Shown here piece after piece: positions 1 to 29,953 of a DNA stretch of 29,953 nucleotides. Numbering within the stretch: the stretch's first letter is position 1; every line of letters starts with the position of its first letter. The DNA is from a virus (lineage: Duplodnaviria; Caudoviricetes), in the IMG/VR virus record IMGVR_UViG_3300042399_000080, positions 1-29,953 of that record; one strand, given 5' to 3'. A model generated the notes under the pieces. That model worked only from the letters and a program-made list of their open reading frames with translations. It did not search any database and was not told where the DNA came from. Position numbers and translations under genes: made by a program.

Positions 1-167
1 CACCAACAGGTAAAAAGGAATTTGCCGTAAACCAACAGGAAAGCGAAGATGATTTACCTTTCTAAAACAACCCCTCGTTGGGCGATAACGTAAAGCGCAA
101 ATTTAAAACTTACAACTATGAGCCAAAACCAACAAATCGCAAACTACCTAAATAAAGGTAGAAAATT
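1..167. repeat. Left copy of imperfect 167-bp terminal direct repeat (circular/permuted assembly overlap)
   Basis: 1-167 matches 29787-29953 except at positions 59, 92, 109, 110, 165. Confidence 0.95.
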
Positions 168-3873: not shown

Positions 3874-4927
3874 GTACGAATATAATGACCATAAATTCCC
3901 TTACAATTGGAATTTAAAAGATGGTTACCCTGCAAAAGGAATAGAAAAACATAATTTAAAGGTATTTGGCACATTTATTTGTGGTGGTGGCTCAACAATG
4001 GGGTATAAATTGGCTGGATATGACCATATTGGCGGAGTTGAAATTGACCCACAAGTAGCTGATATTTATAAAACAAACCACAATCCAAAGCATTTTTATA
4101 ATGAAGATATTAGGTTATTTAATCAAAGAACTGATCTACCGGAAGAACTTTATAACCTTGATTTATTAGATGGCAGTCCACCTTGTTCAAGTTTTTCAAT
4201 GTCAGGGAGTAGGGAAAAGGCTTGGGGTAAAGAAAAGCAATTTAAGGAAGGTCAAGCATTGCAAACATTGGATGATCTTGTATTTGAGTATTGTAATACC
4301 ATCATAAAATTACAACCAAAAGTATTTTTATTGGAAAATGTAAAAGGTATTATTTTGGGTAATGCTAAAGCATATGCCAAAAGGATTATTCAAACAATGG
4401 AAAATGCTGGGTATAATGTTCAAATATTCCTTTTAAATGGCGCTTCAATGGGTGTTCCTCAAAGGAGGGAAAGAGTATTTTTTATTGGTCATAAAAAAGA
4501 ATTAAACCTTAAACCATTGGTATTGGCTTTTAATGAAAAACCAATTACATATAAAAATTTTAAATCCAATATATATGGTACTGAATTGACCTTTGAAACA
4601 AGAAAAATATGGGAACATAGGCATATTGATGATACAAGTTTATCAGATATTCATATAAGGTTAAGTGGTAAAGCTAAAAGGTTTAATGCTGTATTTATTA
4701 AGGATGACAAAGTACCAAATACAATTGCAGCTGGTTCAGATTCAATTCCAATTAGATTTGATGTTCCACATAGGGTTACAATGGATGAATGCAAATTAAT
4801 TGGTTCATACCCAATGGATTATAATTTTAAGAAAATAGCACCCAATTACCTTATTGGAATGTCAGTACCACCATTGATGACAGCTCAAATTGCACATCAA
4901 ATTTGGTTGCAATGGTTTAAAGTATAA
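3866..4927 (+). CDS. DNA (cytosine-5)-methyltransferase
   Basis: Motif I FICGGG, motif IV GSPPCSSFS, motif VI ENVKG, motif VIII PQRRERVF, C-terminal IGMSVPP. Confidence 0.92.
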   Translation: MIKYEYNDHKFPYNWNLKDGYPAKGIEKHNLKVFGTFICGGGSTMGYKLAGYDHIGGVEIDPQVADIYKTNHNPKHFYNEDIRLFNQRTDLPEELYNLDLLDGSPPCSSFSMSGSREKAWGKEKQFKEGQALQTLDDLVFEYCNTIIKLQPKVFLLENVKGIILGNAKAYAKRIIQTMENAGYNVQIFLLNGASMGVPQRRERVFFIGHKKELNLKPLVLAFNEKPITYKNFKSNIYGTELTFETRKIWEHRHIDDTSLSDIHIRLSGKAKRFNAVFIKDDKVPNTIAAGSDSIPIRFDVPHRVTMDECKLIGSYPMDYNFKKIAPNYLIGMSVPPLMTAQIAHQIWLQWFKV

Positions 4928-25925: not shown

Positions 25926-26117
25926 ATGAGATACCCTAAAAACTTTGCAAAATTGACACCAATACAACAAGAGCAATGGTTAGTTACTAAACTAATTGAA
26001 TTGCACAACTTAGAGCAAGAGATCAAGTTAACCTTAGGCAAAATAAGAGGTGGTGAGAAACTTATATTTAAAGAAATAGACAGACCAGATTTGGCTTTAT
26101 TAAAAGATGAAGATTAA
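25926..26117 (+). CDS. Hypothetical protein
   Basis: 63-aa ORF, tightly packed, AATATG start. Confidence 0.6.
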   Translation: MRYPKNFAKLTPIQQEQWLVTKLIELHNLEQEIKLTLGKIRGGEKLIFKEIDRPDLALLKDED

Positions 26118-26376
26118 AGTTATATATCGTAAACTCGGAAGGGAACAGGCTCACGGCATTGCTGAAAGTGATGGTGTAGTTTATATTGACTCACGGCTAA
26201 AAGGCAAGAAGCAGCTTGAAATCCTATTGCACGAGTGCTTGCATATACTCAATCCAATGGATGATGAAGATGCAATTATTGAGAAAAGTGTAACTTTATG
26301 TAAGGTTCTTTGGCAGCAAGGATACCGAATGGTTGACAATTCTAACGATACACCATTACAAGATGGTTCTAAATAG
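26107..26376 (+). CDS. Small HEXXH metallopeptidase-like protein
   Basis: VYIDSRL....QLEILLHECLH. Confidence 0.7.
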   Translation: MKIKVIYRKLGREQAHGIAESDGVVYIDSRLKGKKQLEILLHECLHILNPMDDEDAIIEKSVTLCKVLWQQGYRMVDNSNDTPLQDGSK

Positions 26377-26392
26377 TTGTTCGTTCATAGTT

Positions 26393-26420
26393 CCTCACCC
26401 CTAAAAAGGTGGGGTTTTTT
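26393..26420 (+). terminator. Intrinsic terminator 1
   Basis: CCTCACC / GGTGGGG stem plus T6. Confidence 0.85.
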
Positions 26421-26423
26421 ATA

Positions 26424-26431
26424 TATCTTTG
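26424..26431 (+). promoter_or_regulatory. -7 promoter box (TATCTTTG) with no downstream ORF
   Basis: TAnnTTTG match between two terminators. Confidence 0.6.
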
Positions 26432-26433
26432 GC

Positions 26434-26489
26434 TTTCATATTGGAGAACTTAGGTTTAACCCTCGCTATTTCCATAGTGGGGGTTTTTT
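26434..26489 (+). ncRNA. Putative ~55-nt small RNA antisense to translation start regions
   Basis: Promoter box, about 24 nt single-stranded segment (TTTCATATTGG...GGTTT), 12-bp hairpin plus T tract. Confidence 0.55.
26458..26489 (+). terminator. Intrinsic terminator 2
   Basis: AACCCTCGCTAT-TTCC-ATAGTGGGGGTT (12 bp with 2 G-U) plus T tract. Confidence 0.85.
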
Positions 26490-26591: not shown

Positions 26592-26625
26592 TTTGATAAA
26601 GTTATAAGGTTTTACCCTATCTTTG
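26592..26625 (+). promoter_or_regulatory. Putative early promoter
   Basis: TTTG (26592-26595) and TATCTTTG (26618-26625) ahead of the small-gene cluster. Confidence 0.65.
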
Positions 26626-26645
26626 AATCCTAAACCAAAAGCAAT

Positions 26646-26837
26646 ATGATATTCAATTTTAAAAATGCAACACCATTGCAAGAATTAAATGCTTATAAAA
26701 ATGGTAAGCATATAAATTTAAAACTATACAATAAAGCATTATCATATTTGAATAATGGGTATAGTTACCAATTGGTAGTAGATAGTTCTAAAGAGCCAAT
26801 AAAAGTATTAAAAGTTATTAAAGGAAATAAATTTTAA
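26646..26837 (+). CDS. Hypothetical early protein
   Basis: 63-aa ORF after promoter; TAAACCAAAAGCAATATG leader. Confidence 0.55.
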   Translation: MIFNFKNATPLQELNAYKNGKHINLKLYNKALSYLNNGYSYQLVVDSSKEPIKVLKVIKGNKF

Positions 26838-26853
26838 ACCAAAACAAACCAAT

Positions 26854-26982
26854 ATGAACAGACTAAAAACTCCACAAGAGAAAGCAAACGAACGCTACAA
26901 AGCTGAAAGCATCAAACCGCTTTACGCATTTATTATTGTATGCGTGGCATTTTTAATTACCGCAATCCTTCAAAACATTTAA
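26854..26982 (+). CDS. Small early membrane protein (42 aa)
   Basis: MNRLKTPQEKANERYKAESIKPLYAFIIVCVAFLITAILQNI; A/C-rich leader. Confidence 0.6.
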   Translation: MNRLKTPQEKANERYKAESIKPLYAFIIVCVAFLITAILQNI

Positions 26983-26985
26983 CCT

Positions 26986-27216
26986 ATGAAAACACCAATG
27001 CAATTACTATTAGAGTACATTAAAACTGCTCACACCTTTACATTCCTTCCAGAACAATTAGCTAAAACTATTGAAGAAAAGTATTTGCCAATGGAAAAAG
27101 CTGATTTAAGAAATGCTTTTGATAATGGGGAAATAAACGTATGGAACGGCAAAAGAGATGAATCTTTTGAATTTGAAGGTGGTATGGACTATTTTAACAA
27201 AACCTATAAAAACTAA
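26986..27216 (+). CDS. Hypothetical protein
   Basis: 76 aa; MKTPMQ.L...MEK.....AF..G...YFNKTYK is a pattern I associate with Bacteroidota phage small proteins. Confidence 0.65.
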   Translation: MKTPMQLLLEYIKTAHTFTFLPEQLAKTIEEKYLPMEKADLRNAFDNGEINVWNGKRDESFEFEGGMDYFNKTYKN

Positions 27217-27219
27217 TTT

Positions 27220-27387
27220 ATGAACGCAATTGAAACCTTTATTTACACATTAGAAACTAAACTAAAGACAATGCCAAGTGGCTATGTAAAAGAAACAGTA
27301 ACCGCCTGTAAGGAATTAGCCGAAGGCATAAAAGAAATCTATGAAAACCCTAATAACAACATTAGTAACGAATCAAATCAAGACTAA
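27220..27387 (+). CDS. Hypothetical protein (55 aa)
   Basis: MNAIETFIYTLETKLKTMPSGYVKETVTACKELAEGIKEIYE...; fills gap, ATG 3 nt after upstream stop. Confidence 0.55.
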   Translation: MNAIETFIYTLETKLKTMPSGYVKETVTACKELAEGIKEIYENPNNNISNESNQD

Positions 27388-27559
27388 CCTACAAACCGAA
27401 GCTGACTCTAAAGGCATAACATTAAGCAAGTTGGTTTATAAAATCCTAAAACAATATGAGCAAACTAATCTATCAAGAGAAACAACTAAAGTTGCACAAA
27501 AGAGCAACAATCCTACTGGAACTGCTAAAACAAGCACAGGGAAGGCAAAATCTATTTGA
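27341..27559 (+). CDS. Ribbon-helix-helix-like regulator
   Basis: LITTLV strand then KTNLQTEADSKGITLSKLVYKIL helices (CopG/Arc-like); C-terminus overlaps the next gene. Confidence 0.5.
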   Translation: MKTLITTLVTNQIKTNLQTEADSKGITLSKLVYKILKQYEQTNLSRETTKVAQKSNNPTGTAKTSTGKAKSI

Positions 27560-27752
27560 GGCTGATCTTGCTGAATGGAGGCGAGGTTTGGATGATACAA
27601 GAACAATGATTAGCGAGGAAGATTTACTAATTAAGATTGCAAGGATGAATGACATCCAGCGCAGAATCCTTAAAAGCTACCATTACTTGATTCTGGACCT
27701 TTATACCTTAACAGAGGACTTTATGTTACCAATAAACCTTTTACATTTTTAA
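27456..27752 (+). CDS. Hypothetical protein
   Basis: 98-aa helical ORF, AAAACAATATG start. Confidence 0.6.
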   Translation: MSKLIYQEKQLKLHKRATILLELLKQAQGRQNLFEADLAEWRRGLDDTRTMISEEDLLIKIARMNDIQRRILKSYHYLILDLYTLTEDFMLPINLLHF

Positions 27753-27753
27753 T

Positions 27754-27954
27754 ATGAAAGCAAAACAAAAAGCAGAATATTTATATAATCAAATGTATAA
27801 TCAAAGACAAATTGGTCCAGAAGCAGCTAAACAATGTGCATTGATATTAGTAAGTGAATTAATAAAGGAAAATTTACGATATGATTATATTCCTTTTGAA
27901 GATAGTAGGTCAGCATTTTATTTAGAGGTAGAAAAAGAACTTAATAAGCTATGA
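27754..27954 (+). CDS. Hypothetical protein
   Basis: 66 aa; KQKA..L...AKQCALI.V.E...EVEKEL.KL; coupled to the next gene. Confidence 0.65.
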   Translation: MKAKQKAEYLYNQMYNQRQIGPEAAKQCALILVSELIKENLRYDYIPFEDSRSAFYLEVEKELNKL

Positions 27955-28388
27955 AAGAAGTACACAAAACGTATATGGCAGAACTTGAAATAGAGGTTTT
28001 GCGAGATAAGAACAAAGAACTAAAAAAAGAAATAAACAGGTTAAAAGACCTATTAGATCAACATTTAAACATAAAAACAACAAGAATGGACAAAGAACAA
28101 CAAAAGGAGTATGCGGTGGAAATAGCCGAAAAAGTGTGTAATTACTATCAGATTAAATATGGACAAATGATGTCCAAATATAGAGGCGAGGAGGTTACTT
28201 TAGCAAGGCAAATGACAATGTACTTGACTAAGGAAAAAACCGAATTAAATGGCGAGGAAATAGCACAAATCTTCAATAGGGATAGAACAACAGTTTTGCA
28301 CTCAATCCAAAAGATTAGGGGTCAATTGTCAAATAAGTTTGATGATACCATAAAAAAGGATGTTTTCAACTTAAATGTGCTTATTTAA
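27951..28388 (+). CDS. Protein with DnaA C-terminal (domain IV) HTH and N-terminal coiled coil
   Basis: VTLARQMTMYL...EIAQIFNRDRTTVLHSIQKI matches the DnaA domain IV signature; no AAA+ domain. Confidence 0.85.
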   Translation: MKEVHKTYMAELEIEVLRDKNKELKKEINRLKDLLDQHLNIKTTRMDKEQQKEYAVEIAEKVCNYYQIKYGQMMSKYRGEEVTLARQMTMYLTKEKTELNGEEIAQIFNRDRTTVLHSIQKIRGQLSNKFDDTIKKDVFNLNVLI

Positions 28389-28420
28389 TTTGGTTATTAA
28401 CACCAAAGTAGTTAATTTTA
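28389..28420 (+). promoter_or_regulatory. Possible promoter with overlapping inverted repeat upstream of bet
   Basis: TTTG (28389-28392), 20 nt, TAATTTTA (variant -7); TTTGGT-N7-ACCAAA palindrome at 28389-28407. Confidence 0.45.
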
Positions 28421-28439
28421 AACTCTAAAACCAACCAAT

Positions 28440-29156
28440 ATGAACGAACAACAACTGGCTAAAAAGCCACAACTTTCGTACACGAAAGATCAAGTAGAGT
28501 TAGTAAAATCGCAGATTGCTCCAGAGGCAACAGTTGATGAACTAAAACTCTTTCTTTATCAAGCACAAAGAACAGGACTTGATGCATTATCAAGGCAGAT
28601 TTATTGCATCCATCGTAATGTAAAAACGCAAAACGGATGGTCTAAAAAAATGACCATTCAAACGAGCATTGATGGATTCCGAGTAATCGCTGAAAGAAGC
28701 GGAAACTATGGTGGACAAAGTGAACCTGTATTTGTAGAACAAGATGGTAAGTTAATTTCTTGCAAGGTATCTGTATTTAGATTTCACGGCGATTTAAGGT
28801 ATGAAGCAGCCGTTGGAGTAGCTTATTGGGATGAATATTGCCAACGAACAAACGAAGGCAAACCAATGGGTTTATGGGCGAAGATGCCACATACAATGTT
28901 AAGTAAAGTTGCAGAAGCATTAGCTTTAAGAAAGGCTTACCCACAAGATTTAAGTGGACTTTATACAGGTGATGAAATGGCGCAAAGTGATGAAAAACCA
29001 GCATACATTAAAACGCACGATAATCTTGATGACTTGGAGTTAGCTATTGACTTATGCATTAGCACAAACGAATTGGCTGAACTTTACACATTGAATCAAG
29101 AATTAGCCGACAAAGAAGTAACTAAATTATTTACCAAGAAAAAACAAACTTTATGA
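28440..29156 (+). CDS. bet: Bet/RecT-family single-strand annealing protein
   Basis: ELKLFL.QA.RTGLD..RQIY, SIDGFRVIAERSG.Y.G, W.KMP.TML.KVAEALALRKAYP..LSGLY..DEM. Confidence 0.9.
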   Translation: MNEQQLAKKPQLSYTKDQVELVKSQIAPEATVDELKLFLYQAQRTGLDALSRQIYCIHRNVKTQNGWSKKMTIQTSIDGFRVIAERSGNYGGQSEPVFVEQDGKLISCKVSVFRFHGDLRYEAAVGVAYWDEYCQRTNEGKPMGLWAKMPHTMLSKVAEALALRKAYPQDLSGLYTGDEMAQSDEKPAYIKTHDNLDDLELAIDLCISTNELAELYTLNQELADKEVTKLFTKKKQTL

Positions 29157-29851: not shown

Positions 29852-29953
29852 AACAACCCCTCGTTGGGCGATAACGTTAAGCGCAAATTTAAAAACTACA
29901 ACTATGAGCCAAAACCAACAAATCGCAAACTACCTAAATAAAGGTAGAAAGTT
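29787..29953. repeat. Right copy of imperfect 167-bp terminal repeat
   Basis: Matches 1-167 with 5 mismatches. Confidence 0.95.

Follow-up and report, generated by a model that had tools for sequence, protein, structure and literature searches.

A short intergenic element in the phage genome analysed here (the window, 29,953 nucleotides) is probably a gene for a trans-acting antisense RNA of about 54 nt, by which the phage would control its own early genes and, above all, its recombinase. This reading is directly backed by the anatomy of the element (hereafter unit 2), its conservation in related phages, its complementarity to early-gene starts and the covariation of its seed with the leaders of its own phage. 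An earlier note on this DNA had proposed a separately promoted antisense RNA that occludes the AUG of several early genes, and the conservation and covariation seen over five seed clades support that proposal. Judged by its sequence, the locus is a cassette of two tandem antisense tracts, the first of which (unit 1) was overlooked in the earlier note.

The phage genome in the window is circularly permuted and nearly complete: its first ~160 bases repeat its end with few differences, and all recognised genes lie on the + strand. Gene order runs from replication genes through NinG, a methylase, terminase, portal, capsid, tail, endolysin and exonuclease to a small metallopeptidase-like gene, downstream of which an early block encodes a DnaA domain IV protein, Bet and a winged-helix protein; the labels early and late were assigned from this order. 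The metallopeptidase-like gene (26107..26376, + strand; 89 aa with an HExxH motif; phrog_87, E 7e-5) is the last gene before the cassette and was used as the anchor. The bet gene (RecT family; PF03837, E 4e-30) occupies 28440-29156 on the + strand, and the winged-helix gene (PF14090, E 4.5e-15) occupies 118-312 on the same strand, with its start repeated at the window end (29904). A GC-rich inverted repeat (29853-29880) lies upstream of the winged-helix gene and a TATATTTG box downstream of it (314-321), and its product is a candidate regulator of the replication operon. The stand-alone DnaA domain IV protein (PF08299; 27951-28388) has an N-terminal extension and is encoded directly upstream of bet. 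An apparent promoter-like box of bet's own, TAATTTTA, lies at 28402-28414 with one mismatch and would yield a short leader beginning CUAAAACC, which resembles the first early leader. The earlier note had recognised no CI-type repressor, and profile searches of the window genes likewise found no match to one or to an integrase, although the PF14090 and PF08299 proteins are encoded. The PF00589 integrase was also not found in five related records, three of which are at least 90% complete.

Contigs carrying the cassette were binned in four genomes of a genus that holds a Sediminibacterium MAG; the cassette is whole in three of them, while the fourth bin has a truncated contig with unit 1 only. 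Based on this binning and on the TAnnTTTG boxes, the host is likely a Sediminibacterium-type bacterium, though binning is weak evidence. Searches found no close cultured phage and no cultured carrier of the cassette, the best exonuclease match (51%) being in Flavobacterium phages, and model R1 matched tooticki6-1 at only E 0.7.

Anatomy and conservation of unit 2

The predicted promoter of unit 2 is a Bacteroidota sigma-A -7 box, TATCTTTG (26424..26431, + strand), that is kept in relatives. As the consulted portion of a study of such promoters places this box at -12 to -5 (PMC9723704), we infer that transcription would begin at 26436 and yield an RNA of 54 nt (26436..26489, + strand) predicted to fold into a single-stranded 5' part followed by a terminator. 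The 5' part holds two blocks of complementarity. Seed 1, UCAUAUUGG (26436..26444), is the complement of CCAAUAUGA across the start codon and covaries with the phage's own leaders, while seed 2, GGUUUA (26453..26458), is the complement of the UAAACC at the 5' end of early leaders and would allow two-block duplexes with genes 26646, 26854 and 27754. The 12-bp terminator described in the earlier note was confirmed on the + strand as a predicted 12-pair stem (26458-26485) with a U tail, the whole spanning 26458..26489, and the unit folds better on this strand (-17.6 kcal/mol, z = -3.6) than on the - strand (-10.9 kcal/mol).

Other elements of the earlier description held only in part. The promoter box is present and conserved at this position, but the motif by itself is not beyond chance (47 TAnnTTTG boxes in the window versus 51.7 expected), so that its weight derives from conservation in relatives and not from its frequency. 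The unit 2 promoter has no upstream TTTG element, and a sigma-70 scan of the window was uninformative (44 sites versus 39 expected). The statement that no + strand open reading frame follows the box was loose, in that unit 2 is overlapped by two frames, 41 and 49 codons long, that begin with TTG, but a conserved + strand frame is unlikely because the length of the unit varies from 46 to 58 nt among relatives. No RNA-library run among 23 contained half of the words taken from the region. Several contigs from RNA libraries (8 runs, all assembled contigs) extend across or past the unit 2 terminator, and in runs X10 and X11 the sole contig placed lies on the cassette and passes the terminator; these runs were picked by words from the region and are not support.

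Four scans for relatives yielded 213 loci that contain the anchor gene followed by sufficient DNA, nine loci with <170 nt downstream having been dropped. Box, seed and terminator were found at the same place in 191 of the 213, including contigs present more than once and amounting to 117 distinct 300-nt contexts, with the remaining 22 loci in other gene contexts; these relatives are kin, so that the counts are not independent, and the presence of box, GGT and hairpin in the matches is by construction, as the cassette-finding script demanded them. The hairpin sequence is freely exchanged between relatives while the seed is retained within a clade. Among 68 variants, positions -4 to -1 after the box take 22 different sequences, whereas +1 to +5 read TCATA in 43, and the aligned variants share a GGT(T) block ahead of the hairpin, of which GGT was demanded by the script. 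The first 10 nt of the RNA have a mean predicted unpaired probability of 0.78 across these variants, and the + strand is the better folder in 61 of them. Changes on both sides were observed in five of the six consensus pairs (24 to 36 of 68 sequences), though the hairpins are perhaps not all homologous, and the consensus contains a single terminator hairpin only. A pyrimidine-rich motif, TTTCTA or TTTCCA, occupies the terminator loop in the window (26470-26475) and in clades B-E (for example, L141:6756-6816); it is retained though the stems are replaced and is a possible protein-binding site.

The same variants bear on a different reading, in which the minus-strand micro-ORF encoding MKAKDI that the earlier note had mentioned is the functional product and its leader merely resembles the other leaders of the phage. 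The window does contain a minus-strand ATG with a typical leader, but this ATG is missing in 15 of the 68 variants, the other 53 show 22 peptide patterns with MKAKDI in only 9, and promoter box and terminator both point along the + strand. The micro-peptide was rejected because it is not conserved, and such a product is scarcely credible.

Complementarity of the two units to gene starts

The sequence matches listed in the earlier note were all re-located in the window at the positions it gave. The reverse complement of the unit 2 segment reads TAAACC-TAAGTTCT-CCAATATGAAAGC, and its parts recur in the early block: CCAATATGAA at 26849-26858 and 28435-28444, AATATGAAAGC at 27751-27761, TAAACC at 26631, 26835 and 27733, and CAATATGA at 26642. 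The match at 27754 is present, but its AAGC end probably falls outside the RNA, as the predicted start at 26436 lies downstream of the corresponding bases.

Out of 46 starts, the six best partners of the whole RNA are 26854, bet, 27754, 26646, 27220 and 26986, all of them in the early block (26646-28440). The strongest predicted target in the window is the leader and start of the 42-aa gene 26854 (26835..26858, + strand; -14.7 kcal/mol). The leader and start of bet (28425..28452, + strand) are a predicted target of both units, the 66-aa gene 27754 (27733..27758, + strand) is predicted to pair at -12.6 kcal/mol with the TAAACC at 27733 in its leader, and the first early gene, 26646, whose promoter box (26618-26625) and leader together span 26618..26649 on the + strand, is a weaker predicted target (-10.0 kcal/mol, whole RNA). 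These duplexes are modest, at -10 to -15 kcal/mol. The 42-aa protein itself (26854-26982) has a hydrophobic C-terminal stretch and no family match, and its sequence would be compatible with a small membrane protein of an exclusion or toxin-like kind.

The seed pairs with 15 early starts at -9.5 kcal/mol versus -6.5 with 27 late starts (p = 0.007). None of 500 shuffled seeds, which gave -9.7 +/- 1.5, reached the mean of -15.0 kcal/mol obtained by the real seed with its top three early targets; the best single target was equalled by 25 of 500 shuffles. When the anti-AUG bases (UCAUA) were held fixed, 24 of 1000 shuffles were as good for the top three. For the mean over all 15 early genes the corresponding figure was 123 of 1000, which is not better than shuffles and leaves silencing of all early genes unsupported. 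About three targets in the window are well supported and the others are marginal. The suggestion of one RNA for several early genes is thereby narrowed to a subset led by the recombinase and does not extend to the whole early block.

The earlier note had asked whether the complementarity exceeds that of random A/C-rich leaders, and it does, as the pairing beats host-like leaders: among 291 start regions (first ATG of frames of at least 120 codons in 400 kb of the 1.8-Mb candidate-host MAG), one was as good a partner for unit 2 as the top three phage targets. For the next four targets, 11 to 33 of the 291 were as good (11 for the 26646 duplex). Host mRNAs, which the earlier note had put forward alongside those of competing phages as possible targets, therefore gain little support for unit 2.

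Unit 1 (26374..26392, + strand) is an antisense tract complementary to the starts of bet and of the winged-helix gene and lies within the 3' UTR of the last late gene. It is followed by a terminator that it shares with the late operon (26393..26420, + strand); this terminator has a z of only -1.65 in the window and occurs in relatives with differing stems. Its bases 26376-26389 are an exact 14-nt complement of the bet start at 28439-28452, the longest antisense match in the region, with a predicted pairing energy of -20.8 kcal/mol that none of 500 shuffles equalled. The best partner of unit 1 in the window variant is bet, and the leader and start of the winged-helix gene (108..135, + strand), also a predicted target, rank 2 of 55 starts in the window. 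In 30 of 41 distinct pairs, against an expectation of 4.1, the winged-helix start is among the three best partners, and in clade A a variable base of unit 1 tracks bet codons 2-3 in 39 of 42 cases versus 1 of 21, in lineages that are not independent. A possible internal promoter box, TAACTTTA, lies inside the metallopeptidase gene (26291..26298, + strand; one mismatch in the window copy), and TAACTTT(G/A) occurs at the box codons of the anchor gene in 191 of 191 cassette loci and in 0 of 22 cassette-less loci, the phages sharing ancestry. Given this box-like sequence within the anchor gene, unit 1 may be a 3'-derived RNA of its own, although the evidence for separate promotion is suggestive only. 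In one relative (L063, ~4820-4895) a third promoter-box-to-hairpin unit, with unrelated 5' sequence and no clear target, lies between units 1 and 2.

Unit 1 also has a conspicuous partner in the candidate host. Its bases 26374-26393 are predicted to form a 17-bp pairing at the start of mfd, the transcription-repair coupling factor gene (L408:15051-15067, in G006), at -23.5 versus a mean of -6.6 and best of the 291 starts, and a search for the unit 1 pattern in 151 genomes of the genus returned seven matches, all of them mfd starts. A cassette directed mainly at the host, with unit 1 silencing mfd, would account for this pairing. However, the matches come from seven small-genome Sediminibacterium MAGs of one clade (also L414-L420) and are exact in only two, a reversed control hit a similar number of genomes, and no comparable fit was found for other unit 1 variants among 30 mfd starts. 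Since bet and mfd both begin M-N-E-Q, the match is possibly a by-product of pairing with bet, and unit 2 has no standout host partner within the 400 kb covered. Host silencing as the main purpose of the cassette is thus very unlikely, and control of the phage's own early genes remains the preferred reading.

Covariation of seed and leader across phage clades

The cassettes fall into five seed clades (A-E), each of which mirrors the leaders of its own phage, the seed changing with the leader (CCAATATG, CCA(A)TAGTATG, CCATTAGTTATG, AAGTCTATG and CGTTATG). The gene in the recombinase slot changes as well: clades A and D have RecT/Bet, B and E have ERF, and a 205-aa family without a name occupies the slot in C and part of D. 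This last family (L195:7042-7656 and L172:10878-11489) corresponds to phrog_19042, of unknown function, its Atlas leads to Sak/Rad52 all lie under 0.9, and the protein gave no Pfam or NCBIfam match; it is a candidate new annealing protein family and is referred to by its slot rather than as a recombinase.

Among 37 distinct seed/leader pairs, the recombinase-slot gene was the best-ranked start in 24 and one of the three best in every pair (uniform expectation 1.3 and 4.0, respectively, from a median pool of 27 starts per locus). With foreign-clade seeds it was among the three best in 37% of 628 trials, compared with 19% of 444 for shuffled seeds whose first 5 nt were held fixed. When 120 clade permutations were compared, the own-clade assignment came out best by energy (2 of 120 by exact-match length), while in a broader swap own loci outdid every other-clade locus for only 15 of 30 seeds. 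The swap tests covered loci with at least 2.3 kb downstream or a detected recombinase-slot gene and drew on five seed clades only. Clades C and E are represented by one or two loci, and modules are shared among B, C, D and E, which would explain why foreign seeds within B-E often give the recombinase a high rank. Opposite the G of the start codon, clade B has a U, a combination that pairs in RNA and is a mismatch in DNA, and several seeds resemble stacked anti-start modules.

The same observations weigh on the possibility that the segment acts as DNA or is a relic, either an inverted leader copy left by recombination or a site to which the winged-helix or DnaA-domain protein binds as its operator, set amid an ordinary promoter-like box and a back-up terminator. 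These phages, being mosaic, do reuse leader sequences, the window encodes two DNA-binding proteins, and TAnnTTTG is common by chance. Nevertheless, the match begins at the predicted +1 with variation higher just upstream, is kept while the hairpin is replaced, follows the leader through replacement of the recombinase family and makes use of G-U pairs, and a DNA-level motif or relic is therefore decidedly improbable compared with an RNA that pairs with its own phage's leaders.

Beyond this phage group, the element was found in a different phage (L304, L336; model match E 7e-4), where it is divergent from the early operon and its best predicted partner is again the phage's own early gene (-16.0 and -18.2). 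A further model match (E 0.002) at L288:1311-1377 lies in a reverse-oriented structural/glycosyltransferase-like region of another virus contig, with no good partner within its 4.4 kb. The pattern search of viral contigs and model building recommended in the earlier note thus recovered the element in known clades and in L304/L336, but most matches were due to chance: from at least 120 stretches, 11 passed the hairpin/U-tail filter, comprising five from known clades, L303/L304/L336, L288, L359 (434 nt, too short) and a weak match in L387. A metagenome scan gave 72 matches; the filter retained 35 of them, of which 32 belong to this phage group and 3 are unrelated. Model R1 had no match in 121 genomes of the candidate-host family under strict filters and with no positive control within the search. 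The Rfam search, also recommended in the earlier note, returned no family, the window yielding only anti-hemB far below threshold (19.1 bits versus a gathering score of 49.5; E 0.47) and six loci yielding none. A literature search, which lacked most subscription journals and supplements, found no account of an RNA of this type in phages of Bacteroidota.

Related phages without the cassette offer a further perspective on its targets. None of their 47 loci matches the element, and yet 11 of 38 ERF starts in such phages pair with the window seed at -14 kcal/mol or better; in one of them (L392:1501-2065, G006:C22) the ERF leader matches both window seed blocks (-13.8). The leader style is therefore independent of the RNA, which leaves room for a role against competitors. 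Under that explanation, the unit 2 RNA would be aimed mainly at co-infecting or superinfecting relatives and would provide a resident phage in a carrier state with an RNA-only immunity, for which a housekeeping-type promoter suited to constant expression and seeds that stack several anti-start modules would both be fitting. However, it is the leaders of their own clade that the seeds fit best, although sequence cannot tell these from close kin, and the searches of the window and the five related records revealed no integrase, making a primarily kin-directed RNA unlikely.

Known antisense RNAs and predicted mode of action

Self-directed control by antisense RNA has precedents in temperate elements. 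As immunity RNAs that are structured and processed, the C4 RNA of phages P1 and P7 and the CI RNA of satellite phage P4 repress genes of their own phage in trans via short complementary blocks. Unit 2 is similarly phage-encoded and predicted to repress its own phage's genes in trans by short blocks but, unlike these RNAs, it is a predicted primary transcript with one terminator hairpin, no Rfam match and no integrase found, and its predicted targets are the start codons of a recombinase and accessory genes. The sar RNA of phage P22 is cis-encoded opposite its target. The same arrangement, opposite a single target, is described for lambda OOP in the consulted part of PMC5415839, and while OOP and sar resemble unit 2 as small phage antisense RNAs governing phage development, unit 2 is encoded apart from several targets, which lie 0.2-2 kb away on the same strand and pair imperfectly through matches of 9-14 nt. 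Lambda PreS, described in the available portion of a preprint as Hfq-associated and mainly host-directed, shares with the VpdS RNA of a Vibrio cholerae phage and with unit 2 a phage-encoded, trans-acting seed that pairs with several mRNAs (bioRxiv 10.1101/2024.10.31.621285), but the best-supported unit 2 targets are the phage's own genes. In its sequence features unit 2 has what is expected of a trans-encoded sRNA, namely its own promoter and terminator, no conserved frame and an exposed, covarying seed. When compared with type I toxin-antitoxin systems, its top target in the window is the 42-aa gene 26854, but the small targets differ in other clades, and it is the recombinase that stays constant as a target.

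Within the same phylum, GibS and FopS of Bacteroides thetaiotaomicron are, in the excerpts consulted (PMC7366714, PMC11697453), reported to repress several mRNAs that lack a Shine-Dalgarno sequence by pairing at or beside their start codons. According to the same excerpts, FopS is ~65-70 nt long and made from a canonical sigma-A promoter, and a block of translation was demonstrated for FopS-10 (PMC7366714, PMC11697453); Bacteroides is described there as having no obvious Hfq (PMC7366714). As far as these excerpts go, unit 2 resembles the two in its design, that of a short RNA whose 5' seed is unstructured and which ends in a terminator. GibS and FopS are, by the same accounts, host RNAs with a conserved seed that act on host metabolic genes, whereas unit 2 is phage-encoded, is predicted to act on the phage's own early genes and has a seed that is rewritten with the leaders; nor does it resemble a bacterial chromosomal gene, since the 32 true matches in metagenomes were all in this phage context. 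By analogy, unit 2 would work like GibS and FopS and, in its logic, like C4 and CI, yet its true matches are confined to phages and it has no Rfam match.

If unit 2 is such an RNA, host polymerase would transcribe it from the sigma-A box, its exposed 5' end would pair across the AUG and the second block would grip the 5' UAAACC of the short leaders. From the complementarity and from GibS and FopS we infer that this pairing would take place in vivo and would occlude the start codon, blocking initiation or translation. The RNA would accumulate with genome copy number and impose a threshold or shut-off on early recombination and accessory genes, which is the least supported step of this scheme; given the housekeeping-type promoter and the failure to find an integrase or CI gene, a copy-number-linked shut-off appears the most likely outcome. 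Unit 1 would further repress the winged-helix gene and, in the window variant, bet. A more far-reaching version is tentative and rather less likely to be correct: that early control is exerted by RNA only, with a two-RNA cassette at the late/early junction replacing a protein repressor, one RNA acting on the recombinase start and the other on the winged-helix regulator, that its seeds are rewired one module at a time whenever an unrelated family takes over as recombinase, that it belongs to an undescribed, phylum-wide class of master regulators in Bacteroidota phages that act against start codons, and that unit 1 may also reach host mfd.

Bacteroidota mRNAs mostly lack Shine-Dalgarno sequences, and early-gene shut-off in the phages of this phylum has been little described. 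A seed that tracks its leader from Bet to ERF to a third family constitutes natural compensatory evidence for start-codon occlusion. If correct, the cassette would offer a compact model of a regulator and its targets co-evolving in mosaic genomes, a candidate control on the rate of phage recombination and a minimal natural gene-silencing scaffold for this phylum.
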